Below are positions 3,277-57,608 of a DNA stretch of 64,000 bases, in pieces; position 1 is the first letter of the stretch; the number at the start of each line of letters is the position of its first letter. Under the pieces are notes generated by a model, which was given only the letters and a program-made list of their open reading frames with translations, was not told where the DNA came from and ran no database searches. A program made the position numbers and the translations under genes. Location of the stretch: NCBI GenBank assembly GCA_001790445.1, contig MGCQ01000008.1, positions 26,676 to 90,675 of the forward strand, read 5' to 3'. Source of the stretch: Candidatus Saccharibacteria bacterium RIFCSPHIGHO2_12_FULL_41_12. GTDB taxonomy: Bacteria > Patescibacteriota > Saccharimonadia > Saccharimonadales > 2-12-FULL-41-12.

Positions 3277-3981
3277 ATGAAAAACTTTCACCTAAAAATA
3301 AAAACCACCATAGCCTTTTGCTATTTTATTATTGCATTGTCTGTTCTTTTTGGAGGACAAGGATATGCTGAAACAGTGAGCTGTGGTCCGCTTAATTCAG
3401 TGGACAGGACTATCTGTGAAGCAAGTTTGACTCAGTGTGGGGACAGAGACACGGATAGTGATAAAGCTTGTAGAAAAGGATTTCGTGAAGGAGCGAAGAA
3501 AACAGGCGATAATAAAAGCGATGCTTGCAAGAGCTTCAAGAGCAACAATAAAGCTGAGTGCGAAAATGGCTACAACGCAGGGGCAAGTAAACAAGATGCT
3601 CTTAACAAAGAGGCATCTGCCCAAGCTCCATCACCAATTCCGGGTTCGGTAGGGACGCACCAGTGTGGCAATTTAAGTGATAAATCTGAGAACGTTAATA
3701 CAAAAATCAACTTTGGGTGTTTGGGCTCAAAGGCACCAGGTGGAACGGGCCCAATAGAAGACCTCTTGTATGCTTTAATCCGTTTTCTTTCAAATGGCAT
3801 AGGCATCATGATGGTGGTAGCTCTTATTGGTGCAGGCATAAAGTACACAACTAGTGAGGGCAATGCAGAACAAACTATGAAAGCCAAAAGACAAATCCAA
3901 AATATAATAATTGCTCTATTTATCTACCTATTTACGTATGTGATTTTGCAATTCTTAATCCCAGGAGGGATATTTAAATAA
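3277..3981 (+). CDS. VirB2/TrbC-topology pilin-like protein, paralogue 1 (234 aa, long 8-Cys ectodomain)
   Basis: Signal-like N-terminus (IAFCYFIIALSVLFGGQGYA), an ectodomain with 8 Cys, and a C-terminal two-helix hairpin (GIGIMMVVALIGAGIKYTTSEGNAEQTMKAKRQIQNIIIALFIYLFTYVILQFL). Confidence 0.55.
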   Translation: MKNFHLKIKTTIAFCYFIIALSVLFGGQGYAETVSCGPLNSVDRTICEASLTQCGDRDTDSDKACRKGFREGAKKTGDNKSDACKSFKSNNKAECENGYNAGASKQDALNKEASAQAPSPIPGSVGTHQCGNLSDKSENVNTKINFGCLGSKAPGGTGPIEDLLYALIRFLSNGIGIMMVVALIGAGIKYTTSEGNAEQTMKAKRQIQNIIIALFIYLFTYVILQFLIPGGIFK

Positions 3982-3997
3982 GGTATAATATGAACCA

Positions 3998-4381
3998 ATG
4001 ATAAACTTCTTAAATATCTTTAACTTTTTTGCAGCCAGCGGAGAAACACCTGCAGAAGTGGCTTGTCAAAAAGGTAGCTTTTTTGCCTTCCCTACTTGGT
4101 ATAAATATCTAGAGGTGGATACGAATTATTGCAACCCAAAGATAGACAATATCAATGACATTTGGTTGATAATGCTGGCAATAGTCGAAATTTTGATTCG
4201 GCTTGGAGTGATTTTGGCTATTATCTTTATAATTTATGGGGGCGTAAGTTTAATAATGGCTCGTGGCATTCCAGAAAAAGTTAACTCGGCTCGTGACATG
4301 ATTATAGATGCTATAACAGGACTTGTTATTGGTCTGGTGGCTATAACGTTGATCAGTTTCTTGGGGAAGAGTTTTGGTTAA
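3998..4381 (+). CDS. VirB2/TrbC-topology pilin-like protein, paralogue 2 (127 aa)
   Basis: Short hydrophobic N-terminus, a 2-Cys ectodomain, then TM1-loop-TM2 (ILAIIFIIYGGVSLIMARGIPEKVNSARDMIIDAITGLVIGLVAITLISF). Confidence 0.55.
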   Translation: MINFLNIFNFFAASGETPAEVACQKGSFFAFPTWYKYLEVDTNYCNPKIDNINDIWLIMLAIVEILIRLGVILAIIFIIYGGVSLIMARGIPEKVNSARDMIIDAITGLVIGLVAITLISFLGKSFG

Positions 4382-4382
4382 G

Positions 4383-4700
4383 ATGTTGGACAAGATAAAT
4401 TTTTTCATACTAGCAATTAGCAAACCTATAAACTGTGAAAGTGGCGCCAATTGTCAAACAACCCTTCCCGAAATAAAAGCCACAGACGCAACTGCAGAGA
4501 AGATATTTGGAATTATTTTTGGCACTATTGCTGCAGTAGCAATACTTATAATTGTGCTGTCAGCGCTGAACTGGGCGATTCGGGGTGGCGACCCAGAAGT
4601 TATTACTCGCTCCCGAAAAGCCATAATCTATGCAGTCGTTGGGCTTGCTATTGCTCTACTTTCTGAAACGTTGGTACTAACGCTCCTGAACAGGGTATAA
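4383..4700 (+). CDS. VirB2/TrbC-topology pilin-like protein, paralogue 3 (~105 aa)
   Basis: The track ORF starts at TTG 4374, overlapping the upstream stop, so I prefer ATG 4383 (MLDKINFFILAIS). It has a 2-Cys segment (NCESGANC) followed by TM1-GGDPEVITRSRK-TM2. Confidence 0.55.
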   Translation: MLDKINFFILAISKPINCESGANCQTTLPEIKATDATAEKIFGIIFGTIAAVAILIIVLSALNWAIRGGDPEVITRSRKAIIYAVVGLAIALLSETLVLTLLNRV

Positions 4701-4701
4701 A

Positions 4702-5109
4702 ATGAAAAAACCCTTACTCATATTAATTATTACGCCGATATTATTGATTTTTTTGCAAGCCTCCGCCCAAGCTGTAGATCTATTCAGGAATAACTGTAAT
4801 GGATCTGCCGCAGACTCAGCCGTTTGTAAGGACAAAAAAGCTGTAGAAAAAGCAGATGCGTCAAAGAATGAAGATAACCCGATATTTGGTCCAAACGGCA
4901 TAATAACTATAATTACAAATATTTTGTCAGCGGTGGTCGCTATAGGGGCAGTTATATCAATTGTTTATGCTGGCATGAAATTGATTTTTTCGGGGTCTAA
5001 TCCTCAAGAAGCAAACAGTGCCCGTGAGAGGATTATCTATGCATGTGTGGCTTTAGTGTTTGTTGCACTAGCCCAGATAATAGTCAGGTTTGTTATCAAT
5101 AGGTTATAA
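4702..5109 (+). CDS. VirB2/TrbC-topology pilin-like protein, paralogue 4 (135 aa)
   Basis: Signal peptide (LLILIITPILLIFLQASAQA), a 2-Cys ectodomain, then TM1-SGSNPQEANSARER-TM2. Confidence 0.6.
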   Translation: MKKPLLILIITPILLIFLQASAQAVDLFRNNCNGSAADSAVCKDKKAVEKADASKNEDNPIFGPNGIITIITNILSAVVAIGAVISIVYAGMKLIFSGSNPQEANSARERIIYACVALVFVALAQIIVRFVINRL

Positions 5110-5121
5110 TCGGTAGTAAAT

Positions 5122-5526
5122 ATGACAAAAACATTAATTACAAAGATATTACTTGCAACCCTGCTTTTAGTCGGAGTCTTCCAATATTCTGCAAATGTGC
5201 CGGTCTTTGCCCTAATAGGCTCTGGTTCTAAAGAACAAGCTTGTAAAGGTGCAGAGCTTGATAATGCAACAGGGGCAAATTGTGGTGAAAAGGCCAGTTC
5301 AGATACACAAAAAATATTGGAAAGTGTGATAAATATCATGTCGGCTGTTGGTGCTGTGATTGCTGTGCTGGTAATCATCGTCAATGGGATCAAATTGGTC
5401 CTGTCTTCTGGAGATTCTGCCAGAGTTAACACCGCTCGTTCAGGAATAATTATGGCGGTAGTTGGGCTGATTGTCATTGCCCTTGCGCAGACTTTAGTTA
5501 AATTTATTATCAACAGGGTGGGTTGA
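5122..5526 (+). CDS. VirB2/TrbC-topology pilin-like protein, paralogue 5 (134 aa)
   Basis: Signal-like N-terminus, a 2-Cys loop (ACKGAELDNATGANC), then TM1-SSGDSARVNTARS-TM2. Confidence 0.6.
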   Translation: MTKTLITKILLATLLLVGVFQYSANVPVFALIGSGSKEQACKGAELDNATGANCGEKASSDTQKILESVINIMSAVGAVIAVLVIIVNGIKLVLSSGDSARVNTARSGIIMAVVGLIVIALAQTLVKFIINRVG

Positions 5527-5585
5527 TGAGTGTGCAAAGTTGTGCTATAAAGTAATTAGAATATAACAAAAGGAAACCAAAGAAA

Positions 5586-5999
5586 ATGAGAAAATTTATT
5601 AGACAAATAGTTACCACATTAGCACTGGCTACTGTCATGTTAACACCAGCACTAGCGACAACTTCAGTATTTGCGGCTGACATAGACAAGAGCCTTTGCA
5701 AAGGGGCTGAACTGAAGCTTAGTGGAGAAGGAGATTGCTCAACGACTGAAGCAGCAGGAACAGGTTTAGACAAATTGATAACAGATGTTGTTAACATATT
5801 TTCCGTAATTGTCGGCGTAGTAGCCGTAATAATGATCATCTACGGTGGTTTCCGCTATATCACTTCAGGTGGGGACTCTGGTAACGTTACTACTGCAAAA
5901 AACACTATTCTCTACGCTCTTGTCGGGCTTGTCATAGTTGCCTTGGCGCAGTTTATCGTAAAGTTTGTACTGAGCAAGGCCACTGGGCTCGGCGACTAA
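5586..5999 (+). CDS. VirB2/TrbC-topology pilin-like protein, paralogue 6 (137 aa)
   Basis: AAGGA ribosome-binding site. Signal peptide ending VFAADI, a 2-Cys loop (LCKGAELKLSGEGDC), and the C-terminal hairpin NIFSVIVGVVAVIMIIYGGFRYITSGGDSGNVTTAKNTILYALVGLVIVALAQFIVKFV. Confidence 0.6.
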   Translation: MRKFIRQIVTTLALATVMLTPALATTSVFAADIDKSLCKGAELKLSGEGDCSTTEAAGTGLDKLITDVVNIFSVIVGVVAVIMIIYGGFRYITSGGDSGNVTTAKNTILYALVGLVIVALAQFIVKFVLSKATGLGD

Positions 6000-6010
6000 G
6001 GTTTGCAAAG

Positions 6011-6445
6011 ATGAAAACTAAAATATTTTCGTTCGTATTTGGGCTGAGCCTTCTCGTCTCGTTTGCAGGTGCCATGAATACCAGTACTGTTCTAGCAGAT
6101 TCTAAAAGTGAACTTTGCAGTGGCGCAAACTTTGATATAAGTGGTGGTAGCGATGCAGGTTGTGATGGTAAATCTGCCTGTGAAGACGACCCATCTAAAG
6201 CAAATTGTCCGGCAGGCAAGCTAAATACCCTGATCAACAATATAGTTAACATTTTATCTGTAATTGTCGGTGTTGCTGCCGTAATTATGATCATTTATGG
6301 CGGGTTTAGGTACGTTACTTCTGGGGGCGACTCTGGCAATTTGACTACAGCGAAAAACACCATACTCTACGCTCTCGTCGGGCTTGTTGTGGTTGCCTTG
6401 GCGCAGGTGATCGTTAAGTTTGTGATTAACAAAGCCAGTTTTTGA
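6011..6445 (+). CDS. VirB2/TrbC-topology pilin-like protein, paralogue 7 (144 aa, 4 Cys)
   Basis: AAGG ribosome-binding site, a signal peptide and a 4-Cys ectodomain. The C-terminal hairpin is nearly identical in protein sequence to paralogues 6 and 8. Confidence 0.6.
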   Translation: MKTKIFSFVFGLSLLVSFAGAMNTSTVLADSKSELCSGANFDISGGSDAGCDGKSACEDDPSKANCPAGKLNTLINNIVNILSVIVGVAAVIMIIYGGFRYVTSGGDSGNLTTAKNTILYALVGLVVVALAQVIVKFVINKASF

Positions 6446-6489
6446 AGCCGAGACTTTGAAGTCTCTCTCAGTCTATGGTATAAATTAGT

Positions 6490-6906
6490 ATGATGAGACT
6501 TTTGATGTACTCACTGGCTAGCGTGTCCCTGTTTTTGGCTTTTTTCTCACCAGTATTTCTATCCTCAAGCGTTTACGCAGCAGATATCTCGAATAATCTT
6601 TGTAAAGGAGCGGACTTGCGGTTTAGTGGCAATGCAAACTGTGCCGATACCACTAAAGATTCCAGCGCCAAGCTAGACAAGCTGGTAACCGACATAGTCA
6701 ATATATTTTCTGTCATTGTCGGTGTAGTCGCAGTGATCATGATTATTTATGGCGGATTTCGCTACATTATTTCTGGTGGAGACTCTAGCAATGTCACCAA
6801 TGCGAAAAACACCATACTCTACGCTCTCGTCGGGTTAGTCGTAGTCGCTTTGGCGCAGTTTATCGTAAAGTTCGTACTGAGCAAGGCCACTGGGCTTGGG
6901 GTTTAA
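6490..6906 (+). CDS. VirB2/TrbC-topology pilin-like protein, paralogue 8 (138 aa)
   Basis: Signal peptide ending VYAADI and a 2-Cys loop (LCKGADLRFSGNANC). The last ~50 nt of coding DNA differ from paralogue 6 at only one position. It is preceded by a small hairpin (gagactttgaagtctc) and a TGgTATAAA extended -10-like box. Confidence 0.6.
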   Translation: MMRLLMYSLASVSLFLAFFSPVFLSSSVYAADISNNLCKGADLRFSGNANCADTTKDSSAKLDKLVTDIVNIFSVIVGVVAVIMIIYGGFRYIISGGDSSNVTNAKNTILYALVGLVVVALAQFIVKFVLSKATGLGV

Positions 6907-7069
6907 CTCGACTTACGCAAATCTCCACACTCTCAAACTCTCCAGATGAGTCCAGAACCCCTTTTTCTGATGTCACCACACCTACCAGGTGTGCTTCCAC
7001 CAGAGAAAAGAACTTCTAAATCTCCTCTGGAAGATTCTGGAGAATGCGGAGATTTGCGTAAGTCGAGTT
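6905..7069. repeat. 165-bp long-hairpin repeat, copy 1 (MITE-like or structured RNA)
   Basis: The termini aactcgacttacgcaaatctcc and ggagatttgcgtaagtcgagtt are reverse complements, and the interior also pairs (tctccaga/tctggaga, ctttttctg/cagagaaaag, apex cacacct-acc-aggtgtg). The element is ~96% identical to 49158-49322 and begins inside the stop codon of pilin paralogue 8. Confidence 0.85.
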
Positions 7070-7087: not shown

Positions 7088-7108
7088 AGCCGCTACGTGC
7101 TAGCGGCT
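7088..7108. terminator. bidirectional intrinsic terminator candidate
   Basis: Hairpin agccgcta-cgtgc-tagcggct flanked by an A-run upstream and a T-run downstream. It sits between the pilin array / hairpin repeat and the convergent hsp20 gene. Confidence 0.6.
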
Positions 7109-7129
7109 TTTTAGTGACTAATTTTTGTT

Positions 7130-9851: not shown

Positions 9852-10859
9852 TTGACTGAATTACTTGAACGTGAACGACGAGTGCATAGTGAATTTGGCT
9901 TGCAGCCTGCCCCAGATCAATCAGGTCGTCCTTGGTATGGCCAAGAAGATGTAATAGCTGTAGCCACAACAGCTGGAGTTGTCTTTTTAAAGCATTATTT
10001 TGAGTCAAAACAAGACACCACTCAAGAACTAGCACCTGATACTGGTCGCAACGGAGGAGCAAGAGAGTCCGTGGCGCGTTATGCTACTTTCGTTGCAGGG
10101 TTTATAGATGAACAATTGCCTTGGGTGAGTTCCAACATGATAACTCTTGCTTCAACAACAGGAGTATTGGCATGCAACCGTGCTGCGTCAAAAGAAGATA
10201 TTGCTGATTGGGAAAGATTTGGTTGGACGTTGGCAGAAGTAGGTTTTAGTTTGCTTGACGGTGTTGACGGTGAACACTCAAGAATTAGAGAGGCAAAGGG
10301 ACAGACCAGATCAGATCGTAGCAAGATTCTTGGTGCTCTTTTGGACGTTGGATGTGACAAGACGCAAGAGATTAATACTTTCTTGAGTCAAGCAAAAATA
10401 GCCTTTCAAAAACGTCAATACGCAGGTACGGCAGTTTGTCTGATCGCTGGTGTGACGACTCCTTTTCCTGCTTGGGCGCGCTCTTACGCTGAAATCCAAG
10501 GTGTCTATGTGCCGGAAGAAGGCAAGAGTCTTCTTCAAAAAGCGGGTACTCGTGTCTGGCGGGGAGTTTGTGGTAGCGTAGGCAAGGGATTGCCCGCTCC
10601 GGCTCAGGCTGTCACAGGCACGGTCGTAGCCATTGCCAACACAGCTACGACCAGAAGCAGACTCAAAATTGCCAACAATGCTAAAAGGCTTAACGTTGCT
10701 GAATCCCCCAACACAAATGTTGAACAAGATGCGCCAGAAACCAGCATGGAACAAAGAATAGCTCGCCCAAAATACGAACTTCTTAAAGTTATTGTTGCTG
10801 GCGGAGCAATAGCCACAGCTATGACAGCTAAAAAGATGATTCAAAAAGCTAAAAACTAG
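9852..10859 (+). CDS. hypothetical membrane protein (weak CDP-alcohol phosphatidyltransferase-like motif)
   Basis: TTG start in the track. Several moderately hydrophobic segments. The sequence DGVDGEHSR...GALLDVGCD loosely resembles DGxxAR..GxxxDxxxD, but the spacing is ~11 residues too long, so the function is not established. Confidence 0.3.
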   Translation: MTELLERERRVHSEFGLQPAPDQSGRPWYGQEDVIAVATTAGVVFLKHYFESKQDTTQELAPDTGRNGGARESVARYATFVAGFIDEQLPWVSSNMITLASTTGVLACNRAASKEDIADWERFGWTLAEVGFSLLDGVDGEHSRIREAKGQTRSDRSKILGALLDVGCDKTQEINTFLSQAKIAFQKRQYAGTAVCLIAGVTTPFPAWARSYAEIQGVYVPEEGKSLLQKAGTRVWRGVCGSVGKGLPAPAQAVTGTVVAIANTATTRSRLKIANNAKRLNVAESPNTNVEQDAPETSMEQRIARPKYELLKVIVAGGAIATAMTAKKMIQKAKN

Positions 10860-13516: not shown

Positions 13517-13606
13517 GGAAGGGTGTCCGAGTGGTTTAAGGAAACGGTCTTGAAAACCGTCGTGTCGGAAACGATACCGTGGGTTCGAATCCCACCCCTT
13601 CCGCCA
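13517..13606 (+). tRNA. tRNA-Ser (anticodon TGA), class II, CCA encoded
   Basis: ggaagggtgtccgagtggtttaaggaaacggtCTTGAAAaccgt...gtgggttcgaatcccaccccttccgcca. The anticodon loop is CTTGAAA and a long variable arm is present. Confidence 0.9.
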
Positions 13607-13713
13607 AGCACAAGCCCTGATTTTTCGGGGTTTTTGCTTTTATTGTAAGTCTCAAGAGGTTTAACCAATATCCCACCCTCTAACTTTTAATTGAAGTATA
13701 ATGAATCTAGTGT

Positions 13714-13805
13714 GGAGAGGTGGCCGAGTGGTTGAAGGCGCTGCTCTCGAAAAGCAGTATGTGGGGCAACTCATATCGAGGGTTCGAATCCCTCCCTCTC
13801 CGCCA
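13714..13805 (+). tRNA. tRNA-Ser (anticodon CGA), class II, CCA encoded
   Basis: ggagaggtggccgagtggttgaaggcgctgctCTCGAAAagcag...cgagggttcgaatccctccctctccgcca. The anticodon loop is CTCGAAA. Confidence 0.9.
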
Positions 13806-13814
13806 AACAAAGGG

Positions 13815-13835
13815 CCGACATTTGTCGGTTTTTTG
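13815..13835 (+). terminator. intrinsic terminator after tRNA-Ser(CGA)
   Basis: Hairpin ccgac-attt-gtcgg followed by tttttt. Confidence 0.65.
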
Positions 13836-13961
13836 TTTGGTTGGAGGTGGTAGATTTGAACCCGAGATTCGAGGGTGAGAAATGCCGGTGGCATTTCGCA
13901 AGGGAGTCAACTCTTGCAAACTAGTTTGCAAAGATGTTGCGACGGGGTCGCAGGATGTGAC

Positions 13962-16156: not shown

Positions 16157-16211
16157 CCTTTTATTGCTATAAATCCTTTCAAAACGGCAAAATAATTGTT
16201 ATTATAAGGCT

Positions 16212-17051
16212 ATGAATGAAGTGGGACTAGGCGAGGCGTTGCAACAAGCCCGCAAAAATAAAGGGCTAACCCAGCAACAGCTCTGCCAAAAGACCGGGCT
16301 AAGTTATTCTACTTTGGCAAAGATCGAACGTGGCGCTATCAAATCTCCCTCTATTTTTACTGTGGCACAGATTACCAAAGCTTTGGGTGTAAGCATTGAC
16401 GAAGTTGTTGGAGTTGTCCACCAACCTGCTCAACAAGCCCAAAAGAAAGTTGCCAAAAACGGCGTTAGATTTATATATTTTGATATTAATGGCTGTTTGC
16501 TCCAATTTTACTACAGGGCATTCGCGCAGATTGCACTGGATTCCGGAGCGCCCTCAGAACAAGTTGAAGAAATATTTTGGCGATATAATTCAGAAGTGTG
16601 CGCGGGCGCTCTATCAGTTGAAGAATTTAACCAACAGATGGCAAAAAAAATTAATTTGTCTGATTTTCAGTGGCAAGACTACTATCTAAAAGCCGTCTCA
16701 CCTATCAAAGAAACCGCCGATGTTATTACCTGGGCTAGCCAGCATTACTGCGTTGGGCTTTTGACTAACATAATGCCGGGGATAGTTGATGAACTTGTCA
16801 AAAAAGGTTTGATACCAGATATTCATTATGATCAGATTATTGATTCGTCAAAAGTTGGTATGATCAAGCCTGATCCCGCAATTTTTGAACTTGCCACCCA
16901 GCGTGCTGGCGCTAAGCCGGAAGAAATACTTTTTGTTGATGACGAGAGAGCTAACTTAACAGAAGCAAGTAAACAAGGCTGGCGCACCTTGTGGTTTGAC
17001 GCATACGACACAGAGAAATCCGCTCAAAAAATCCGTGATACTTTAGTCTAA
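16212..17051 (+). CDS. fusion protein: XRE-type HTH domain plus HAD-superfamily hydrolase domain
   Basis: N-terminal LGEALQQARKNKGLTQQQLCQKTGLSYSTLAKIERG (HTH_3 pattern). The C-terminal HAD motifs are IYFDINGCL (motif I with Asn replacing the second Asp), LLTN, KPDPAIF and VDDERANL. Confidence 0.7.
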   Translation: MNEVGLGEALQQARKNKGLTQQQLCQKTGLSYSTLAKIERGAIKSPSIFTVAQITKALGVSIDEVVGVVHQPAQQAQKKVAKNGVRFIYFDINGCLLQFYYRAFAQIALDSGAPSEQVEEIFWRYNSEVCAGALSVEEFNQQMAKKINLSDFQWQDYYLKAVSPIKETADVITWASQHYCVGLLTNIMPGIVDELVKKGLIPDIHYDQIIDSSKVGMIKPDPAIFELATQRAGAKPEEILFVDDERANLTEASKQGWRTLWFDAYDTEKSAQKIRDTLV

Positions 17052-18430
17052 GAATTAGTCTGGATAAATTTAGATAGATCTTTAATTATTTCCTGAATTT
17101 TGGCTGTACCTGGCTTGGCTTCGCCCCAGATGCGCACGACTGGCTCTGTACCAGAAGTTCTGACGACAATACGACCTTTGTCGCCCAGGCTATCTTTGAC
17201 TGATTTTATTTGTTGTTGGATCGTAGCATTTTCCTCAATTTTTGGAGCGTTCGGGTTAATTATCACTGTGGTTTTAGCTTCTGGCCAAAGAGGAAGCTCT
17301 TTGTGAATATCTGCAAAAGTTTTACCTTGGCGCGATACATATGACGCAAACCAAGCAGCCATGCGCACGCCGTCCCCACTTGATAACCAGGCAGTATCTA
17401 CATGGTGACCGGTGAATTCCCCGCCGCGGGTCCAGTTGTCTCCCCTGGCTTGGCGAGCGACCAGCGCAGCAGTTACGGCAGTGTCGCCGTTGGCGCATTG
17501 CTCAAACTCAACCCCCATTTGATTAAGGGCCTCAACAAGCCCACTGTTGGTGTAAAGTGTGCCAACAATTCCTGGCTGTCCTTTGGCCAGTGCCAAAAAA
17601 ACGTGATTGCCATTAATCTCAACAAAATTATTATTTCCTAGGATCCCGATACCCATCATGCGATCACCATCGCCATCGCACGCAATCGCACCGATAAAAT
17701 TTGGATCACTTGTGATTTCTGAATGACTTTTTAAATAATCTTTAACACCATTTAAATTTGCTGCGCCACAATCCTGATTGATCTTCCCTACCCCGTCGCA
17801 AGCAAATCTATAAACTTTGGCACCAAGTTGCTCTAAAATTACCGGAGTATAATTCATGGTTGCCCCATTGGCCCCATCAACGACAAATACTTTACCAGCA
17901 AGCGGTTGAGCAGAAAATTCCCTCTCGATATCTTTGACAACTTCATTTATGTACCAACCTGAGAGTTCATGCTTATCAATGACCTGCCCAGCAGACTTTG
18001 GTTTATGGGTTTTTTGAAGATTATCCCAATATATATCACTAACTTTGTTTGCTTGCCCGGTTGTTAGTTTGTCTCCAGCAATTGCCGCTTTCCAGCCGTT
18101 ATCAGTGTATGGATTATGGCTGGCTGTGATCATTACTGCCAGAGTTTTGAAATGACGAGCGACTTTAAATGTTCCTGGGGTTGGCATAACTCCTAAATCC
18201 CAAACTTCTACACCAGCCGTGGCGCCTGCTTGGATTACAGCTTGAGCCAAGGCGTTACTAGATGGGCGAGTATCGCGTCCCACTACTAGAATTTTATATT
18301 CTTTGGTAAATTCAATTAGCGCTGTAGTCAATTTAGAAATAGTCTCTGTGTTGAGTAAGCCTGGTCCAGTTTGCTCAGTATATTCTCCTCTAAACCCATC
18401 CGTCCCAAATAACGACTTTGAGAGCATCAT
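17048..18430 (-). CDS. glmM: phosphoglucosamine mutase (alpha-D-phosphohexomutase family)
   Basis: Active-site loop MITASHNPYTDNGWK, metal site ACDGDGDR, and a 460-aa length typical of GlmM. Confidence 0.7.
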   Translation of the reverse strand: MMLSKSLFGTDGFRGEYTEQTGPGLLNTETISKLTTALIEFTKEYKILVVGRDTRPSSNALAQAVIQAGATAGVEVWDLGVMPTPGTFKVARHFKTLAVMITASHNPYTDNGWKAAIAGDKLTTGQANKVSDIYWDNLQKTHKPKSAGQVIDKHELSGWYINEVVKDIEREFSAQPLAGKVFVVDGANGATMNYTPVILEQLGAKVYRFACDGVGKINQDCGAANLNGVKDYLKSHSEITSDPNFIGAIACDGDGDRMMGIGILGNNNFVEINGNHVFLALAKGQPGIVGTLYTNSGLVEALNQMGVEFEQCANGDTAVTAALVARQARGDNWTRGGEFTGHHVDTAWLSSGDGVRMAAWFASYVSRQGKTFADIHKELPLWPEAKTTVIINPNAPKIEENATIQQQIKSVKDSLGDKGRIVVRTSGTEPVVRIWGEAKPGTAKIQEIIKDLSKFIQTNS

Positions 18431-21721: not shown

Positions 21722-22291
21722 ATGCCAATTAGCCCCCACGAACAACAAGGACAACAGGAACAGTTATCCATTGGTGAAAGATATGCTCACGCAGCGAACG
21801 AGCATGCTATCCAGATATTGCAAGGTGCTGAGCCAGATGAGATGGCATTTCGATCATTGGCTGTACTTCAAACCAGAGGTAAGCTCGGAGAGCATACCAA
21901 TGAATGGAATGCTTTAGACGAAGAAGCTTTTTATCTGTTAGCAGACCATTTAGTGATTGATAGAAAAGATCTAGATAACATTGAAGAAGTTCAACAAGCG
22001 ATAGTAGCAGGTGATAAATTCCCAAAAAGTGCTTTTCCCCGTCTCGCGGCTTTGCTTATCAGTGGTGCTGATTTATTTAATCGAACAGTAGAACAATCTC
22101 CTGAAGTAATAGCTGGAGAAGAAAGGTACCACGAAGGAAACATAGAATCGCTAGAGGCACGCAACAAAAGACGACAACAGGAAACAATCGGCGAAACAGC
22201 TATAGCAGGTAGTGCAGGTGAACTATCTTCAGAAACACGACGGTCAATGAGACATCCTCACCCTAGAGGCGGTGGAAGCCGTGGTCGTTAA
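21722..22291 (+). CDS. hypothetical protein (acidic, C-terminal RGG-rich tail)
   Basis: 189-aa ORF behind a strong promoter. No TM helix and no recognisable motif. Ends in HPHPRGGGSRGR. Confidence 0.5.
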   Translation: MPISPHEQQGQQEQLSIGERYAHAANEHAIQILQGAEPDEMAFRSLAVLQTRGKLGEHTNEWNALDEEAFYLLADHLVIDRKDLDNIEEVQQAIVAGDKFPKSAFPRLAALLISGADLFNRTVEQSPEVIAGEERYHEGNIESLEARNKRRQQETIGETAIAGSAGELSSETRRSMRHPHPRGGGSRGR

Positions 22292-22542
22292 TATACTAAG
22301 TTAAGTAATTACCTTGTTACTACGTGGAAATAGGTAATTGAGCGTACAACAATACAGACCTTTGAGCGCTCGCTTGCAAAAGCTTATATCGGCATACCCT
22401 TATGATAGTTTTTGGTTTTGTTTTGTTTGCGCACAAGGTAGCTACCTAGTTTGCATTTTTCCGGACGTTTTTGTTTCAATTTTAGTATAATCCCAAAACC
22501 ATAAGCAATGCAACACTATTATTTTACATAACAAATAAACAC

Positions 22543-23046
22543 TTGCGCTAAAGCCTCCAAGGAGGCTTTTATCACCTTACTTTTTCTCACTAGCAAGAAA
22601 AAGTAAGCAAAAAGTGCCACCCCGGTGATCAAAAACTGCCCTAAGATTAAATAACTACAAACATACTATTCTTCCGGGACTCCTTCCAGTCGGGGACAAG
22701 CCCTGGTCCTCAGAATAATCTGTCTGTAGCCATTTAATCTAAAGGTGTTTTGACCAAGGGGACATTAAGCGGTCTAAAGTCATAATTAATAATATTTCCT
22801 ACGGAAATATACAAGGGAAGCTTGGGTCAGGCCTTGAGCAGACCTGAGAGATTTCGTCGAGATTACAACTATCAGACGAGGACTGTTTGAATGACCAAAG
22901 GGAGAGAGTTCCGCAGTCTGTTGTAATCTTCGACAAGAAATCACTTCAAGTCTGTTCAACCGCCTGCTACTTCTTTGCATACTTTCTTGTTAGCACAAGA
23001 AAGTATGGTGTATCAGGCCCTATTGGGCCGACGCAATGCATTTTTT
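22543..23046 (+). repeat. ~510-bp structured intergenic repeat, copy A (full length)
   Basis: Shares end modules and long internal blocks with 29667-30176 and 57033-57550, and its 3' half matches the reverse complement of 41217-41465. Modules: outer ttgcg...cgcaa, terminator-like GC hairpins, 12-bp sub-terminal hairpins, and apical hairpin atatttcc-tac-ggaaatat at 22791-22809. Confidence 0.9.
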
Positions 23047-23070
23047 GTATCTGTGAGAAGACAGACAGTT

Positions 23071-24129
23071 TCACATCTGTAAGGATGGCTCGATTTGTAG
23101 CGATTTATAGTCAACTAACTTCTTATTTTTCATATAAATTTGTGATCCCTGGGAGGCGATCATTGCTCCATTGTCAGTCGATAATTTTGGATCTGTTGAA
23201 TGCACTTTAGCCCCAAACAGTTCCTTTGCTCGTGTGCGCAAATATTGATTAGCAGATACTCCACCAGTGATAACGATGTTTTTGGACGCAAATTCTTGTT
23301 CTGCCTTGATTAGTTTTTCTAACAAGGTTTCTATTGCGGTGTATTCAAAACTAGCGGCAATATCGGCTTTTTGTTGATCTGATAGATGTTGGGCAATCTT
23401 TAAACTAGGGAAGGTGTAGTCTTTACCAATAACCTGTTGAGACAGACGAAGAACAGCTGTTTTCAGTCCAGAAAAGCTAAAATCGTAGGGGTTTTCTAGG
23501 CGGGATTTTGGTAGTTGATAGGTTTTTTGATCACCCTGCTTTGCTAACTTTGAAATACTTGGCCCACCAGGATATGGCAACCCCAAAATCTTCGCAACTT
23601 TATCAAATGCCTCACCCACTGCGTCGTCACGAGTCTTGCCCAAAACTTCGTATTTGGTAGGGGACAGATAATACACTATTTGACTGTGCCCACCACTGAC
23701 AATTAGGCAAAGGGCAGGGAACTCAAGTGGGGCTTTGGGTAGGTGATAGTTAAGTGATGTTTTAGTCAAAAAATTAACGGCCATGTGGGCCTGAACATGG
23801 TCAACTGGTATAAGCGGTTTGTCGTAAATTTGACCAAGTGTTTTGGCAGTCATAACCCCGACTAGCAGGCTCCCACCAAGCCCTGGACCATAAGTTACTG
23901 CGACAGCATCAATATTTGTCCACGTGCACCCTGCCTGCTTCATGGACTCAGCCAGAACTGGGATTATATATTCTATCTGTGCACGCGCTGCTACCTCTGG
24001 GACAATGCCTCCATACTGAGCTTGCAGATCCATAGAAGAAGCCACAACGTTGGACAGTAGTTCGCAGCCATCTTTTACTATTGCTACAGCTGTTTCATCG
24101 CAACTTGTCTCTATCCCTAAAATTAACAT
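23071..24129 (-). CDS. tsaD: tRNA N6-adenosine threonylcarbamoyltransferase
   Basis: MLILGIETSCDETAVAIV N-terminus plus Kae1/TsaD family length and motifs (GGVSAN, HMxxH-type region VDHVQAHM). Confidence 0.9.
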   Translation of the reverse strand: MLILGIETSCDETAVAIVKDGCELLSNVVASSMDLQAQYGGIVPEVAARAQIEYIIPVLAESMKQAGCTWTNIDAVAVTYGPGLGGSLLVGVMTAKTLGQIYDKPLIPVDHVQAHMAVNFLTKTSLNYHLPKAPLEFPALCLIVSGGHSQIVYYLSPTKYEVLGKTRDDAVGEAFDKVAKILGLPYPGGPSISKLAKQGDQKTYQLPKSRLENPYDFSFSGLKTAVLRLSQQVIGKDYTFPSLKIAQHLSDQQKADIAASFEYTAIETLLEKLIKAEQEFASKNIVITGGVSANQYLRTRAKELFGAKVHSTDPKLSTDNGAMIASQGSQIYMKNKKLVDYKSLQIEPSLQM

Positions 24130-29171: not shown

Positions 29172-29624
29172 ATGGCATTTTTTGATCGATTTAAAAGAAA
29201 AAAAACAGCAAGCGTACTGCCCCAGGAAGTTGATGATTATTATCGTACAGAAAAACGAGGACGTCGTGGCGCAGCATTTTTGCTTGGACTAATGACCTTT
29301 ATATTGACAGTTATATTTGTTCTGGGCGTATTTTTTGTGGGACGGTTTTTTTACCACAAGATTCAGAATAATTCCGACAAAAATACTTCTGTTTCTGTCA
29401 GCACAGAAAATGGTAAGAAAAAGAATACTGATAAAACGTCATCTGATGACAAAAACGCAAATTCTACTAACTCTGCAAATACTTCAACAGGATCAACATC
29501 TAGTGGTAGCGGTTCAAGCCAAGCTCCTTCAACGCCAACCCCACCAACTCCAGCAGTAGCACCAAATACTGGCGATAATGTCCCAAGTAGTTCTTTGCCT
29601 CGTACGGGCGATGAGGGCATGTAG
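29172..29624 (+). CDS. hypothetical membrane-anchored Ser/Thr/Pro-rich protein ending in LPRTGDEGM
   Basis: N-terminal TM (AAFLLGLMTFILTVIFVLGVFFVG), a low-complexity S/T/N/P region, and an LPxTG-like pentapeptide 5 residues from the C-terminus with no following hydrophobic anchor. Confidence 0.5.
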   Translation: MAFFDRFKRKKTASVLPQEVDDYYRTEKRGRRGAAFLLGLMTFILTVIFVLGVFFVGRFFYHKIQNNSDKNTSVSVSTENGKKKNTDKTSSDDKNANSTNSANTSTGSTSSGSGSSQAPSTPTPPTPAVAPNTGDNVPSSSLPRTGDEGM

Positions 29625-29666
29625 GTTCTTTTCCAAAGAATTTAACATCTTAAAACCCAAACAACA

Positions 29667-30176
29667 TTGCGATTGCGCTAAAGCCTCCAAGGAGGCTTTT
29701 ATCACCTTACTTTTTCTCTCTAGCAAGAAAAAGTAAGCAAAAAGTGCTACCCCAGTGATCAAAACAAACCCTGAACCTACAAGACAACAGACAAGACTAT
29801 TCTTCCGGGACTCCTTTTAGTCGCCCCGCCTGAAGGCGGGGTAGTCCTCAGAATAATCTGTCTGTAGCTTTGTAGTTCCAAGGTGTTTTGACCAGGGGGA
29901 TATTAAACAGTCTAAAGTCATAATTAATAATATTTTCTATGAAAATATACAGATTGATAGTCAGGCCTTGAACAGACCTGAGAGACTACGTCAAGATCAC
30001 AACTATTAGACGAGGACTGTTTGACCCCGCCTAAAGGCGGGGGAGTTCCGCAGTCTGTTGTGACCCTTGACCGGTAGTCCCATCAAGTTTGTTCAATCGC
30101 CTGCTACTTCTTTGCATACTTTCTTGTTAGCACAAGAAAGTATGGTGATTAAAAGCCTGCAGGGCTTTAATCGCAA
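29667..30176 (+). repeat. ~510-bp structured intergenic repeat, copy B (full length)
   Basis: The outer closing pair cattgcga (29665-29672) / tcgcaatg (30171-30178). It has the same end modules as copy A and carries two ccccgcc-NNNN-ggcgggg hairpins (29824-29841, 30025-30043) at positions where copy A has other sequence. Confidence 0.9.
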
Positions 30177-30222
30177 TGAGTTATTTGCTGTTCGCAAGCT
30201 TTATCACAAGTGTTTATATTTT

Positions 30223-30594
30223 TTAGGCAGTTAGATGTTGTTTGACGATTTCGGCGACTTGGCGAGGGGTCATTTCTGCTTTAACGATAAAATCAAGGAC
30301 GTTGAGATCTTTAAGACTATCTGGGGCTTCTTGTTCTCCCATGTTGGTTAGGATTATGACTTTGATGTTTTTGCCCCAAGGTTCTTGACGCATTTTGGTC
30401 AGCATCTCATCGCCGTTCATGTCCGGCATCATTAGGTCCAGCAGTACAATATCTGGGTTGATGTCTTTGACTAATTTCAATCCATTGACGCCACCATAAG
30501 CTACATCAACAGTGTAACCTTCTGATTCGAACTTGACCCGATACATCTGAGATATTGTTTGGTCGTCCTCGACAATTGCTATTTTCTGTACCAT
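30223..30594 (-). CDS. stand-alone response regulator receiver domain (CheY-like)
   Basis: IAIVEDD...DIVLLDLMMPDMNGDEML...IILTN... receiver motifs. 123 aa with no output domain. Confidence 0.85.
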   Translation of the reverse strand: MVQKIAIVEDDQTISQMYRVKFESEGYTVDVAYGGVNGLKLVKDINPDIVLLDLMMPDMNGDEMLTKMRQEPWGKNIKVIILTNMGEQEAPDSLKDLNVLDFIVKAEMTPRQVAEIVKQHLTA

Positions 30595-35672: not shown

Positions 35673-35718
35673 CAACAAACAAAGATTCAACATGATGAAA
35701 TATAATGCGTGAATTAAA

Positions 35719-35754
35719 ATATCATTTTCGCAACACGTGTATAATAAATGATAT
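35719..35754. promoter_or_regulatory. 36-bp palindromic motif, copy 1 (ATATCATTTT-N-AACACGTGT-N-AAATGATAT)
   Basis: atatcattttcgcaacacgtgtataataaatgatat. It has 9-10-bp outer arms plus an ACACGTGT core. The same 36-bp layout recurs at 36388-36423 and 41523-41558. Confidence 0.7.
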
Positions 35755-35785
35755 TAACAGATAAGCAGGTGGGGTAAATTAGCAA

Positions 35786-36322
35786 GTGAGTAAGAAAGCA
35801 GCGAATTTAATTGTGCAGATTATAGGTGGTGGGCTGGTGATATCAGCAGGGATGGTCGCTCCCAATGCCGTTGTTCCTCTGGCAAAGATCTTAATCAAAA
35901 GGCAGAAAAGTGCCAAAGAAACAGAGATTATCCAGGGGCTTAACTATGCCAAGAGACTAAAACTAGTCAAAATCCAGCAAAATGGTAGCCAGTTCACAGT
36001 GAAGCTCACCGAAAAAGGTCAAAAACGCCTGACAAAGATTAATCTCACTACCCCTTTAAAACAAGCCAAATGGGATGGGAAGTGGCGGATACTCTTATTT
36101 GATATCCCCAACAAAAAGACAGATGCGAGAAATGCTCTACGACTCACTATGCGGGAGCTGGGCATGCAGAAGCTTCAAGATAGTGCTTGGGTGACGCCTT
36201 GGGACTGTTCTGCTCAGTTCCTAGCAATGAAATACGTCTATGGTATCGAGCCGTACATAACTCTGATAGTTGCTGGTAGTATCGATGAAGAAGAGAAGTG
36301 GAAAAAACAATTCAAACTATAA
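35786..36322 (+). CDS. PaaX-like / Cas2-fold-like putative DNA-binding protein with N-terminal membrane segment
   Basis: GTG start. The block WDGKWRILLFDIPNKKTDARNALRLTMRELGMQKLQDSAWVTPWD matches the PaaX-family middle-domain pattern (W.G.W..v.fdIPe..R..R..lr..L...Gf..lq.svWv.P). Confidence 0.5.
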   Translation: MSKKAANLIVQIIGGGLVISAGMVAPNAVVPLAKILIKRQKSAKETEIIQGLNYAKRLKLVKIQQNGSQFTVKLTEKGQKRLTKINLTTPLKQAKWDGKWRILLFDIPNKKTDARNALRLTMRELGMQKLQDSAWVTPWDCSAQFLAMKYVYGIEPYITLIVAGSIDEEEKWKKQFKL

Positions 36323-36387
36323 GTGACTTGTGCTATAGCTAGCTTGTGAACCCAGCTTCTCCATCGGTAGTTGATCAATATATTTGA

Positions 36388-36423
36388 ATATCATTTTTGC
36401 AACACGTGTTTAGAAAATGATAT
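36388..36423. promoter_or_regulatory. 36-bp palindromic motif, copy 2
   Basis: atatcatttttgcaacacgtgtttagaaaatgatat. Confidence 0.7.
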
Positions 36424-36548
36424 TTTTATAACTGTAATTGGTGGCTGTATTTGCTAACTGTTATGGTTTAAAATAATCTAAATAAACTGTTGAGTAGGGG
36501 TTAACAGGGGGGAGGTTGGATTGTGTGAGGAATTTTACAGTAAAATAC

Positions 36549-41180: not shown

Positions 41181-41216
41181 GGTTTCTAACAGCTTACTTT
41201 TCTCAATAACACCTTT

Positions 41217-41465
41217 TTGCCATCCCGCAGTGGCGGGACTGATGCAACATACTTTCTTGTGTTGACAAGAAAGTATGCAAAGAAACAACAGGCGGTTGAA
41301 CAGACTTGATGGGATTTCTTGTCGAGTATTACAACAGACTGCGGAACTCTCTCCCTTTGGTCGTTCAAACAGTCCTCGTCTGATAGTTGTAATCTCGACG
41401 AAATCTCTCAGGTCTGCTCAAGGCCTGACCAACAATCTGTATATTCCCGTAAGCAATATAGATTT
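41217..41465 (-). repeat. ~510-bp repeat family, copy C: inverted, 3'-half only
   Basis: This is the reverse complement of the 3' half of copy A, from the sub-terminal hairpin catactttcttg...caagaaagtatg through ...ctcaggtctgctcaaggcctgacc to the apical region. The terminal GC hairpin is replaced by tcccgc-agtg-gcggga. The 5' half is absent. Confidence 0.85.
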
Positions 41466-41522
41466 GGGATCAGATGTTGAGCAGACCTAAAAGGATAATG
41501 TTTGAATTTTCAATATCATTTT

Positions 41523-41558
41523 CTGAACACGTGTATCGAAAATGATATTTGCAAAACT
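41523..41558. promoter_or_regulatory. 36-bp palindromic motif, copy 3
   Basis: atatcattttctgaacacgtgtatcgaaaatgatat. Confidence 0.7.
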
Positions 41559-41629: not shown

Positions 41630-41866
41630 ATGAGTTATGATTATACAATTACTTCAAAGGGACAGATTACTTTACCCAAAAAACTGAGAGATACGGTAGG
41701 GCTTAAGACAGGTAGTCATGCGAATATTTCCTTGCTAGATAATAGAACAATTATTATTAGGGCTCCTCTGGGCATTGAAGAAATTCGTAAAAAGATTGGT
41801 GCTCCGGCTAACGATCAACCTCTGACAAAAAAAGAAAGCTCCAGATTAAAAGCAAGAGGTCTTTAG
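41630..41866 (+). CDS. AbrB/SpoVT-domain antitoxin (VapB/MazE-like)
   Basis: ITSKGQITLPKKLRDTVGLKTG swapped-hairpin motif, immediately upstream of a PIN-domain gene. Confidence 0.75.
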   Translation: MSYDYTITSKGQITLPKKLRDTVGLKTGSHANISLLDNRTIIIRAPLGIEEIRKKIGAPANDQPLTKKESSRLKARGL

Positions 41867-41872
41867 CCAAAA

Positions 41873-42247
41873 ATGACGATAATCGATGCGAATTACATAT
41901 TGAGATGGTTTTTGAATGACGATGTGGATCAAGCAACTTTTGTGAGAGATTTGATTATCAATTCTGGCTCCAAGACGCTACTTGTAGATAGAATCACGAT
42001 TGCCGAGGTGACATATGTGCTTAGGTCAATGAAGTATAATCATCAACAGATATATGAACTTTTTGAAGAACTTTGTTATTACCCAAGCTTATTGCCCCTA
42101 GGGGAGATAGAGGGTATGGCACTAGATATTTACAGAGATACAAATCTGGACTTTGAAGATGCAACACTGGTTGCAAATGCGAAGATAAACAATTATAAAT
42201 TGGGCACTTTTGACAAAAAAATGATTAATTTGCTGAAGAGTTTATAG
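41873..42247 (+). CDS. PIN-domain ribonuclease toxin (VapC-like)
   Basis: IIDANYILRWF (first acidic residue) ... EVTYVL ... FEDATLVANA pattern. 124 aa. Confidence 0.7.
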   Translation: MTIIDANYILRWFLNDDVDQATFVRDLIINSGSKTLLVDRITIAEVTYVLRSMKYNHQQIYELFEELCYYPSLLPLGEIEGMALDIYRDTNLDFEDATLVANAKINNYKLGTFDKKMINLLKSL

Positions 42248-49157: not shown

Positions 49158-49322
49158 TACTCGACTTACGCAAAATCTCCACACTCTCAAACTCTCCAGA
49201 TGAGCCTAGAACTCCTTTTTCTGATGTCACCACACCTACGGGTGTGCTTCCACCAGAGAAAAGAACTTCTAAATCTCCTCTGGAAGATTCTGGAGAATGC
49301 GGAGATTTGCGTAAGTCGAGTA
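49158..49322. repeat. 165-bp long-hairpin repeat, copy 2
   Basis: About 96% identical to 6905-7069. All differences fall in the 5' arm or apex (an extra a at gcaaaatc, gagcctagaactcc versus gagtccagaacccc, and ctacgggtg versus ctaccaggtg). The 3' arm is identical. Confidence 0.85.
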
Positions 49323-57018: not shown

Positions 57019-57032
57019 ACAACTTTAGCTTC

Positions 57033-57550
57033 TTGCGCTAAGCCCTTGGCAGGGCTTTTATCACCTTACTTTTTCTCTATAGCAAGAAAAAGTAAGCAAA
57101 AAGTGCCACCCCAGTGATCAAAACAAACCCTGAACCTACAAGACAACAGACAAGACTATTCTTGCGGGACTCCTTCCAGTCGGGTCTAAAGACCTAGTCC
57201 TCAGAATAATCTGTCTGTAGCTTTGTATCTCCAAGGTGTTTTAATCAAGGGGATAATAAGCAGTCTAAAGTATTTAACCACTGTGTTTTCCTCCAGAAAA
57301 CACAGATTATTATGATCTAACTGCTTTTGAACCAGGCCTTTGAATAACTGATGAAATATCTATTCAAGCAACGCCATGTTTTGAGGACTACCCCGCCTTC
57401 AGGCGGGGCGACCAAAGGGAGTCCCGGAAAAACTGGGTTGGTTGGATAGATATTTCAATCATGTTACTTCAATAGCCTGCTATTTCTTTGCATACTTTCT
57501 TGTTAGCACAAGAAAGTATGGTGATTGAAAGCCAAAGGCTTTAATCGCAA
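57033..57550 (+). repeat. ~510-bp structured intergenic repeat, copy D (full length, divergent 3' half)
   Basis: The left 220 nt are nearly identical to copy B. The central apical hairpin is replaced by ctgtgttttc-ctcca-gaaaacacag. The 3' arm is largely different but retains a ccccgcc-ttca-ggcgggg hairpin (57391-57408), the sub-terminal hairpin and the terminal aaagcc-aaa-ggcttt hairpin. Confidence 0.88.
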
Positions 57551-57608
57551 CGGGGTTACGAGCTTATTCATAATAAAGAGTTTATAAATAAAAGTGTATA
57601 ATTAGCCT

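Follow-up and report, generated by a model that had tools for sequence, protein, structure and literature searches.

Within a 64-kb stretch of DNA (contig MGCQ01000008.1 of Candidatus Saccharibacteria bacterium RIFCSPHIGHO2_12_FULL_41_12; hereafter the window), we analyzed copy B of a dispersed repeat, a 514-nt element at positions 29665-30178 that has no assigned strand. The upstream gene (29172-29624, plus strand) encodes a 150-amino-acid protein with a weak match to DUF4834, and the downstream gene (30223-30594, minus strand) encodes a response regulator. Both genes lie outside the element, and we confirmed their convergent arrangement, which had been reported in a first-pass annotation of this DNA. 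The best-supported description of the element is an unusually large, modular, palindromic extragenic repeat that recently colonized intergenic spacers and has terminator-like ends.

The window contains three full copies of the repeat (A, B, and D) and one half copy (C), amounting to about one ~0.5-kb non-coding copy per 20 kb. A further ~17 kb of the same genome contained no copies, compared with the four in 64 kb. Copy A (22540-23038) is flanked by an open reading frame (ORF) at 21722-22291 on the plus strand and tsaD at 23071-24129 on the minus strand, and copy D (57026-57552) lies between the genes for inositol monophosphatase (IMPase) and polA. Copy C (41215-41462, minus strand) is a solo right unit consisting of part of the central hairpin, a Y arm, hairpin hp2, and an end hairpin, all of which are defined below. 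Copies A, B, and C are located between convergent genes, whereas copy D is located between co-directional genes. No ORF of at least 60 amino acids was found in copy B, and the insertions and deletions that distinguish copies A, B, D, and C do not keep a frame. The surrounding genes are housekeeping genes (valS, tsaD, Mur ligase, groEL, polA, and argS), and the closest proteins to those encoded in the window are from Saccharibacteria and Patescibacteria metagenome-assembled genomes. We also observed the same DNA in several metagenome assemblies, with some contigs breaking off inside the element.

Architecture of the inverted doublet

The first-pass annotation correctly described copy B as keeping the scaffold of copy A, and we found this scaffold in copy D and truncated copy C as well. 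In our structural model, this scaffold is a back-to-back inverted doublet of one ~240-nt unit rather than a single 250-bp rod. Self-comparison with nhmmer revealed that the left half on the minus strand is homologous, in the same sense, to the right half on the plus strand when both are read outward from the center, where an AT-rich hairpin joins the two units. Because the two units are inverted copies of each other, the whole 510 nt can also be folded as one rod. We set this single-rod fold aside, since the minimum free energy (MFE) structures and covariation favor two separate arm hairpins plus a basal stalk.

Read from the center outward, each unit starts with an imperfect long hairpin, whose conserved tip comprises GAGGACU, a variable small hairpin, and GGAGUCCCG, and continues with a cassette composed of UUUCUUUGC (in DNA, TTTCTTTGC) and a 13-bp hairpin, followed by GGUGAU, a GC hairpin with an A/T tract, and the terminal repeat AATCGCAATG. 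The unit contains several helices with internal three-way junctions and has no GTAG-type head. Viewed from the outside in, the element begins with terminal inverted repeats (CATTGCGATT and AATCGCAATG), followed at each end by a GC hairpin with its A-tract outside and TTTTAT inside. Further inward are ATCACC and GGTGAT, the near-identical 12- to 13-bp hairpins hp1 and hp2, and a short long-range helix between GCAAAAAGTGC and GCTACTTCTTTGC. Innermost are two ~150-nt arm hairpins with conserved tip motifs and the AT-rich central hairpin.

An 8-bp pair closing the ends of the element had been noted previously and was recovered in our analysis: the left terminal inverted repeat or closing arm, CATTGCGA at 29665-29672, pairs with the right one, TCGCAATG at 30171-30178, and the element is 2 nt longer at each end than originally delimited. 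The terminal repeats of copy B read CATTGCGA(TT)...(AA)TCGCAATG, and homologs share (TAGCYT)CATTGCGATTAAAGCC and its complement. The ends CATTGCGATTAAAGCC ... GGCTTTAATCGCAATG recur in homologs from other contigs. Inside these repeats, the left end hairpin (29680-29702, plus strand; AAAGCCTCC-AA-GGAGGCTTT followed by TAT) is terminator-like for the upstream plus-strand gene, and the right end hairpin (30150-30169, minus strand; TAAAAGCCTGCAGGGCTTTA, with TTTTAAT following on the minus strand) is terminator-like for the downstream minus-strand gene. Hairpin hp1 (29706-29737, minus strand; CTTACTTTTTCT-loop-AGAAAAAGTAAG) constitutes on the minus strand the same cassette as hp2 (CTTTTTGC-TTACTTTTTCTTGC...GGTGAT). 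The right-hand cassette (30107-30149, plus strand) consists of TTCTTTGC, hp2 (CATACTTTCTTGT-TAGC-ACAAGAAAGTATG), and GGTGAT. This cassette was invariant in 4/4 window copies and recurs across phyla.

The left arm, module X (29749-29899, minus strand), is a long imperfect hairpin with a tip composed of CGGGACTCC..GTCG, a small variable hairpin, and TAGTCCTC (tip motif AGTCCTC). The right arm, module Y (29962-30103, plus strand), is likewise a long hairpin and carries the complement-sense version of this motif at its tip (GAGGACTGTTTGA, hairpin, GAGTTCCGCAG). Between the arms, at the junction of the two units, is the central AT-rich domain (29905-29957) with its apical hairpin at 29930-29948. 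We observed both of the GC hairpins described in the first-pass annotation, CCCCGCC-TGAA-GGCGGGG (29824-29841) and CCCCGCC-TAAA-GGCGGGG (30025-30042). Their reported mirror-image placement needs correcting: rather than occupying mirror positions of one rod, they form the tips of two separate long hairpins, the former at the tip of left arm X and the latter at the tip of right arm Y. Copy A, too, has a small hairpin at the X tip (GGGG-ACAA-GCCC), and it has none at the Y tip. Alternatives at the X tip in other copies include, besides this hairpin, GGTC-TAAA-GACC, GGC-ATAAA-GCC, and GGTCT-GGG-AGACC. The Y-tip hairpin is missing in copies A and C and has another sequence in homologous loci L069 and L079.

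Maintenance of pairing and dispersal of the family

We compared the predicted folding of copy B with that of dinucleotide-shuffled sequences on both strands. The MFE of copy B was -213.6 kcal/mol on the plus strand and -236.4 kcal/mol on the minus strand, whereas the shuffled means were -134 and -144 kcal/mol (z of -12.5 and -15.0, respectively). In the plus-strand MFE structure, the outer ~85 nt of each side are predicted to pair with each other as a duplex. As reported previously, a C-G pair in the apical hairpin of copy A has become T-A in copy B through changes on both sides: the hairpin is ATATTTCC-TAC-GGAAATAT in copy A (22792-22810) and ATATTTTC-TAT-GAAAATAT in copy B (29930-29948). When changes between copies A and B were counted on the MFE structure of copy A itself, double changes supported the compensatory pattern claimed previously, with 12 keeping a pair and 2 breaking one. 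Single changes were divided, as 11 kept a pair and 14 broke one. Substitutions affected 15.7% of paired positions versus 25% of unpaired positions.

Covariation was also apparent when arms of one type were aligned across copies and genomes. For the type Y right arm, 95.8% of cells across seven sequences were paired and 15 pairs had changes on both sides, a result reached by 0/500 shuffles, with slid controls only ~40% paired. Similarly, seven rows of the type Z right arm from at least five genomes were 92.9% paired with 16 pairs changed on both sides (0/500 shuffles). An RNAalifold consensus was made on five full sequences, as the gap-rich alignment of seven was uninformative. Across five sequences, the Y arm of copy B was 99% paired over 39 pairs, with seven covarying pairs and conserved bulges, and covariation was observed in 7/8 pairs of the Y-tip hairpin (helix 4). 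The positions of bulges in the Y stem were conserved, and tip hairpins were unrelated in sequence between copies, yet their pairing was always kept. These findings support the idea that base-pairing potential in the element is actively maintained by compensatory change. Selection at the level of structure, as proposed in the first-pass annotation, is thus upheld with respect to the upkeep of pairing and the enrichment of compensatory changes, but RNA is not established as the target of this selection. G.U and A.C cells are balanced over the whole element, arms recombine and are found in either orientation among copies, and close relatives lack the element at the same intergenic sites. These traits characterize a dispersed palindromic DNA repeat, in which correction of one arm by the other or a requirement for hairpins of single-stranded DNA could also yield changes that appear compensatory.

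To place the family among relatives, we searched syntenic loci by nhmmer (E<=10 or E<=1) and found no copy in either L114-L118 (77% identity in TsaD) or L119-L125 (82-94% identity in IMPase). Between IMPase and polA, all relatives have a 43-nt spacer, versus 590 nt with copy D, and the spacer downstream of tsaD is 215-474 nt in relatives versus 779 nt with copy A. On the response-regulator side of copy B, relatives have a spacer of 6-14 nt. Because these orthologous sites are empty in relatives, we conclude that the family spread into intergenic spacers. Homologs that are ~80% identical occur at unrelated loci in any orientation relative to neighboring genes, with convergent, co-directional (L094 and L095), and divergent (L069) contexts observed. 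Homologs are also present in Hainich groundwater. As in miniature inverted-repeat transposable elements (MITEs), the element is non-coding and shorter than ~600 bp, possesses terminal inverted repeats, and exists as dispersed copies with empty sites in relatives. As in REPINs (doublets of repetitive extragenic palindromic [REP] sequences), it is an inverted doublet with solo units, which include copy C and the distant relatives L014, L027, and L008/L113, but it lacks the 20- to 40-nt palindrome with GTAG.

The family is also mosaic. We identified at least three arm types (X, Y, and Z) and two or three end types that are variously combined between copies. Copies A and B contain X and Y arms; copy D, L016, and L094 contain X and Z arms; and L069, L079, L090, and L051 contain Z and Y arms. 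The Z arm is therefore a right arm in copy D, L016, and L094 and a reverse-complemented left arm in the other four loci. The left arm of copy B is 96% identical to that of copy D, whereas its right arm is 87-91% identical to that of copy A. Furthermore, the left-tip hairpin of copy B is the reverse complement of the right-tip hairpin of copy D, within a 54-nt stretch that is 93% complementary. Recombination of copies with each other accounts for the mosaic arms and the apparently swapped tip hairpins, so that the swapped modules of the first-pass annotation are real but better described as products of mosaic recombination.

Around copy A, we observed a motif of the tsaD 3' end (acagatgtaaaaaat-like) three times: at the real stop codon (23071-23086), just to the right of the element (23041-23060), and just to its left (22505-22530). 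This triplication suggests a duplication or rearrangement at the copy A insertion site, as opposed to a simple short target duplication.

Taken together, we hold with moderate confidence that copy B is a dispersed, probably mobile, non-coding nested-palindrome repeat of a REPIN- or MITE-like nature in a Saccharibacteria-like genome of the candidate phyla radiation (CPR). In such an element, propagation would depend on the hairpins, with a trans-acting enzyme recognizing a folded single strand, as in REPINs with their REP-associated tyrosine transposase (RAYT) or in other MITE-like elements. The outer modules, each a hairpin with a T-tract, would stop transcription from the flanking genes, and insertions would thereby be tolerated in a compact genome. 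A transcript reading through the element would fold into an extended double-stranded stalk, a type of structure cut by RNase III.

The shared hairpin cassette and competing explanations

The hairpin cassette is not confined to this family. It consists of TTTCTTTGC plus ATACTTTCTTGT-loop-ACAAGAAAGTAT, or the mirror of this arrangement, and spans ~38 nt. In the window, it is located at 30107-30147, 22970-23010, and 57483-57523 and, on the minus strand, at 41244-41284. A metagenome scan with 18 nt of hp2 and its flank returned ~30 chance matches and also many loci where this 18-mer supplies the 5' arm of the same perfect hairpin. An rRNA operon of Firmicute type from the human gut (L073, L054, and others) carries the mirror cassette, hairpin-GGCAAAGAAAAC, directly after tRNA-Ile upstream of 23S and GTTTTCTTTGC-hairpin directly before tRNA-Lys and 5S (10516-10560 and 13798-13840 in L073; 140-180 and 490-530 in L054). 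Pairing between the two cassettes flanking 23S in L073 is predicted to give a duplex of 38 bp (-55 kcal/mol) at the 23S stalk base, and rRNA precursor stalks of this kind are cut by RNase III (PMC4838370). In phage contigs, the cassette is found beside terminase and major-head genes, and in L131 (1375-1412 and 1670-1725) a mirrored pair brackets a ~290-nt structured core; further copies are in L130 (4055-4110) and L132 (3670-3710). We also detected the cassette in Bacteroidetes-like contigs and in a dispersed repeat with three copies in a high-GC contig (L031, 566-850, 3520-3706, and 11088-11453). No Rfam family and no hit in the searchable literature corresponded to the cassette.

Two readings of the cassette as a known signal were rejected. 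Although UUUCUUUGCAUACU resembles the B. subtilis boxA, the complement of this motif is equally frequent, and a separate, canonical boxA-like sequence is present 60 nt away within the stalk of the gut operon, which argues against a boxA- or nut-like antitermination site. Likewise, the spacing does not fit promoters of the sigma-70, sigma-54, or Bacteroidetes type.

Several observations weigh against a REPIN- or MITE-like nature of the element. No target-site duplication was definable; comparison of the filled and empty IMPase-polA sites revealed only a doubtful AGCTT/GACTT repeat in flanks that have diverged. We found no transposase or autonomous element with the same ends in the window ORFs scanned or the fetched loci. 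A consensus pattern scan for terminators did not call the end hairpins, probably because the A-tract pairs with the T-tract. In addition, the architecture, motifs, and bulge positions persist in strongly diverged copies, full or half, from GC-richer contigs (L095, L014/L027, and L008/L113). The family is therefore old, and such deep conservation is less expected of a young MITE than of a functional molecule. The near-identity of the cassette in the 23S stalk base and in phage intergenic regions is not explained by a selfish-DNA model. Finally, reading the halves outward gives 22 G.U versus 5 A.C cells where a pair is predicted on both strands and 77 versus 48 in the union of predicted pairs; as the cells share ancestry, these counts are only suggestive. 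In 6/6 X-type copies, including the very diverged L095, the minus-strand fold of the left arm was the more stable one by 11-23 kcal/mol. Within our folding models, this outward wobble bias and the left-arm energy asymmetry are suggestive of one functional strand per unit.

These points lead to a serious rival, which we regard as possible but somewhat unlikely, that the element is a divergently transcribed pair of genes for ~230-nt structured RNAs or the source of one ~400-nt RNA cut from a precursor. In the former case, each unit would run from the AT-rich center outward and end at the GC hairpin followed by UUUA. The cassette of UUUCUUUGC and hairpin would act as a signal for RNA processing or recognition like that bracketing 23S rRNA, and the copies would represent paralogs within a new class of large RNA that travels on mobile DNA, as HEARO/omega-RNA does. 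Structure conserved to such depth, a moderate strand bias on outward reading, and the presence of the cassette at rRNA stalks and in phages are the grounds for taking an RNA role seriously. Besides the wobble and energy asymmetries, this explanation is favored by strong covariation with bulges conserved in position and by the survival of architecture and tip motifs in L095, L008, and L014/L027. All units have the same sense when read outward, which removes the apparent flipping of modules. The cassette lies on the transcribed strand adjoining tRNA-Ile, tRNA-Lys, and 5S, with its duplex at the 23S stalk base, and brackets the structured core in the phage contig.

In contrast, we found no conserved promoter, as promoter-like hexamers in the AT-rich center were no more common than in shuffled sequence. 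The right arm was near neutral, with little or no strand asymmetry, and G.U and A.C cells were balanced over the whole element (86 versus 89 when the structures predicted for the two strands are combined). Synteny is not conserved, relatives lack the element at the same sites, and orientation relative to neighboring genes is random. The lower substitution of paired than unpaired positions between copies A and B also counts against this rival, as does the absence of an Rfam match. Rfam 15 detected only tRNAs in the window at the gathering threshold and no family for the repeat; with copies B and D searched up to E=10, the best matches were chance miRNA or leader fragments, and no family was found in 18 homolog loci, the gut spacer, or the phage loci. 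Among the neighboring housekeeping genes, there was no candidate for a partner protein. A 20-mer common to copies A, B, and D gave one chance match to genome contigs, in a Bacteroidales coding sequence, and blastn of copy B against plasmid and phage collections gave no match. Our search for literature on Saccharibacteria MITEs, CPR structured RNA, rRNA stalk palindromes, and the hairpin sequence returned nothing relevant.

A bolder form of an RNA explanation, which we offer only tentatively and consider rather improbable, is that [13-bp hairpin]-CAAAGAAA ... UUUCUUUG-[13-bp hairpin] is a cross-phylum module for RNA processing or recognition and the element an undescribed large RNA class that is excised by the rRNA-maturation machinery and spread on mobile DNA. 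The RNA may then be two ~230-nt units or one ~400-nt cloverleaf-like core. The cassette may accordingly be a module that brackets stable RNAs, including 23S rRNA in the Firmicute, the ~290-nt core in the phage, and the arm modules in the element.

The first-pass annotation had proposed a bidirectional terminator role for the ends. Each end hairpin has an A-tract, a GC stem, and an inner TTTTAT or TTTTAAT oriented against incoming transcription, and the stems vary in sequence between copies while their pairing is constant. By eye, GCCTCC/GGAGGC with TTTTAT would serve the plus-strand gene, and the complement of 30150-30169 with TTTTAAT the minus-strand gene; the T run is only four nucleotides long and is able to pair with the A-tract. 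From these sequence features, a terminator role for the ends is plausible. In the window, canonical intrinsic terminators of the same style are found elsewhere (e.g., 7088-7112). Two tRNA genes 200 nt apart (13517-13838) are each followed by a similar GC hairpin and T-run terminator (repeat D9); judged by sequence, these represent the ordinary style of the genome, which the end hairpins resemble.

A stronger proposal, that the whole element is an elaborate bidirectional terminator or insulator under host selection in which the internal arms only add stability, appears unlikely to us. The inbound orientation and invariable pairing of both ends, the likeness to ordinary terminators in the window, and the location of copies A, B, and C between convergent genes are in its favor. 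However, relatives have these gene pairs with no element between them and spacers of 6 to 474 nt, so termination cannot chiefly account for the element. Copy D and L094 are between co-directional genes and L069 is between divergent genes, the ends were not called by the terminator scan, and ~440 of the 514 nt are superfluous for termination, yet these are the part that covaries.

Lastly, we consider it very improbable that the element is a degenerate remnant or mimic of an rRNA-operon stalk, with the outer ~90 nt of each side derived from the genome's own 23S/16S stalk, arms in place of rRNA, and subsequent duplication, since the match in layout between the element base (ATCACC - hairpin - GCAAAAAGTGC ... 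GCTACTTCTTTGC - hairpin - GGTGAT) and the 23S flanks of L073 (hairpin - GGCAAAGAAAAC ... GTTTTCTTTGC - hairpin), with a nearly identical hairpin, is countered by arms without similarity to 23S rRNA, motifs with no complementarity or identity to 23S rRNA, the lack of any match of Rfam rRNA models in the element, and the occurrence of the cassette solo, in the dispersed repeats of a high-GC contig, and in phages.

Genomic setting and comparison with known systems

Other repeats and gene clusters were observed in and around the window. A second repeat family, a ~40-nt palindrome (AATATCATTTTC..ACACGTGT..GAAAATGATATT), is present at 35714-35764, 36383-36433, and 41508-41558 and at 14181-14219 of L133. 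Two of these copies flank a PaaX-like regulator gene (35786-36322), one precedes an AbrB-like/PIN pair and adjoins truncated copy C, and one is upstream of the target gene of a diversity-generating retroelement (DGR); the palindrome looks like a candidate operator for a dimeric regulator. The pair beside copy C consists of a small AbrB/SpoVT-like ORF (minus strand, ~41640-41850, frame not confirmed) and a PIN-domain gene (41873-42247, plus strand) that may form a toxin-antitoxin pair, and two YafQ-type toxin pairs lie beyond the left window edge (L135). Two ~150-nt sequences that are 96-100% identical (6919-7068 and 49173-49321) and have 20-nt inverted repeats (CTCGACTTACGCAAATCTCC ... GGAGATTTGCGTAAGTCGAG) are, from their sequence, a putative second, smaller MITE-like element of the same genome. 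Seven or eight tandem paralogous small genes at 3277-6906 encode type IV secretion pilin (TrbC-like) domains, with a 455-nt period at 5767-6906, and a type IV secretion-like cluster (PrgI, TraC-like, and TraG-like ATPase) is just beyond the left window edge (L135).

The DGR itself is located just beyond the right window edge (L133, 14320-18000; window position 64000 corresponds to L133 position 13334). It comprises a target gene of 655 amino acids, a variable repeat (16173-16286), a template repeat (16586-16699; 80% identical), and a reverse transcriptase gene (17035-18000), and the ~4.3-kb DGR block is missing at the syntenic position of relatives L119-L125. The reverse transcriptase encoded near the repeat family is thus part of a DGR 10 kb from copy D. 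We separately rejected a group II intron, ribozyme, retron, or CRISPR-like element as the identity of the repeat, as there was no model match and no reverse transcriptase or Cas gene adjoining it.

CPR/Saccharibacteria genomes are small and dense, so a ~0.5-kb non-coding element is a notable investment. These episymbionts carry active repeat families, and the repeats break assemblies and reshape intergenic regions by tsaD, polA, and groEL. Among natural examples of a large nucleic-acid fold that compensatory change preserves, whether at the DNA or RNA level, the element is one of the clearer ones. Should the cassette prove to be a widely shared signal, for RNase III or for some other conserved factor, it would provide a handle on RNA maturation in organisms that are not culturable alone.

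Among known systems, HEARO/IscB omega-RNA, ROOL, and GOLLD resemble the element in their length of several hundred nucleotides, many covarying helices, and multiple copies or association with mobile elements or phages. The element differs from them in its pseudo-two-fold symmetry, uncertain strand of action, lack of a covariance-model match, and lack of an adjacent partner gene. With rRNA processing stalks (PMC4838370), the element shares a long-range duplex of 5' and 3' flanks, and its base is close to the L073 23S stalk in layout and sequence. Unlike these stalks, the element encloses ~400 nt of hairpin modules instead of rRNA and is multi-copy and dispersed, and its duplex is a predicted one.

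Bacterial MITEs, including the Correia/NEMIS elements of Neisseria, ERIC/IRU, and BOX of S. pneumoniae, are likewise non-coding, have terminal inverted repeats, occur as many dispersed copies that are present or absent at orthologous sites, and have transcripts that would form long hairpins. They can carry terminators, BOX elements are modular, and the hairpins of Correia elements are reportedly substrates of RNase III, a finding attributed to De Gregorio and colleagues. In contrast to these MITEs, the element is three to five times longer, with nested palindromes in place of one pair of terminal inverted repeats and an architecture conserved much more deeply. It also differs in that no target-site duplication was resolved and no cognate insertion sequence was found in the window ORFs or fetched loci.

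REPINs and bacterial interspersed mosaic elements (BIMEs) of proteobacteria, whose features are said to have been described by Bertels and Rainey in 2011 and by Gilson and colleagues, differ from the element in having REP sequences of 20-40 nt with a GTAG head compared to a unit of ~240 nt without one; the element is about ten times larger than a REPIN or MITE as a whole. Further differences are its CPR host, the fact that no RAYT (a Y1 transposase) was seen in the ~82 kb of genome read, and a hairpin cassette that is shared across phyla, which REP sequences are not known to be. Nevertheless, REPINs and BIMEs share with the element an extragenic inverted doublet of a palindromic unit, one long hairpin, solo units, mosaics of unit types, compensatory changes, and a frequent location at the 3' ends of genes.

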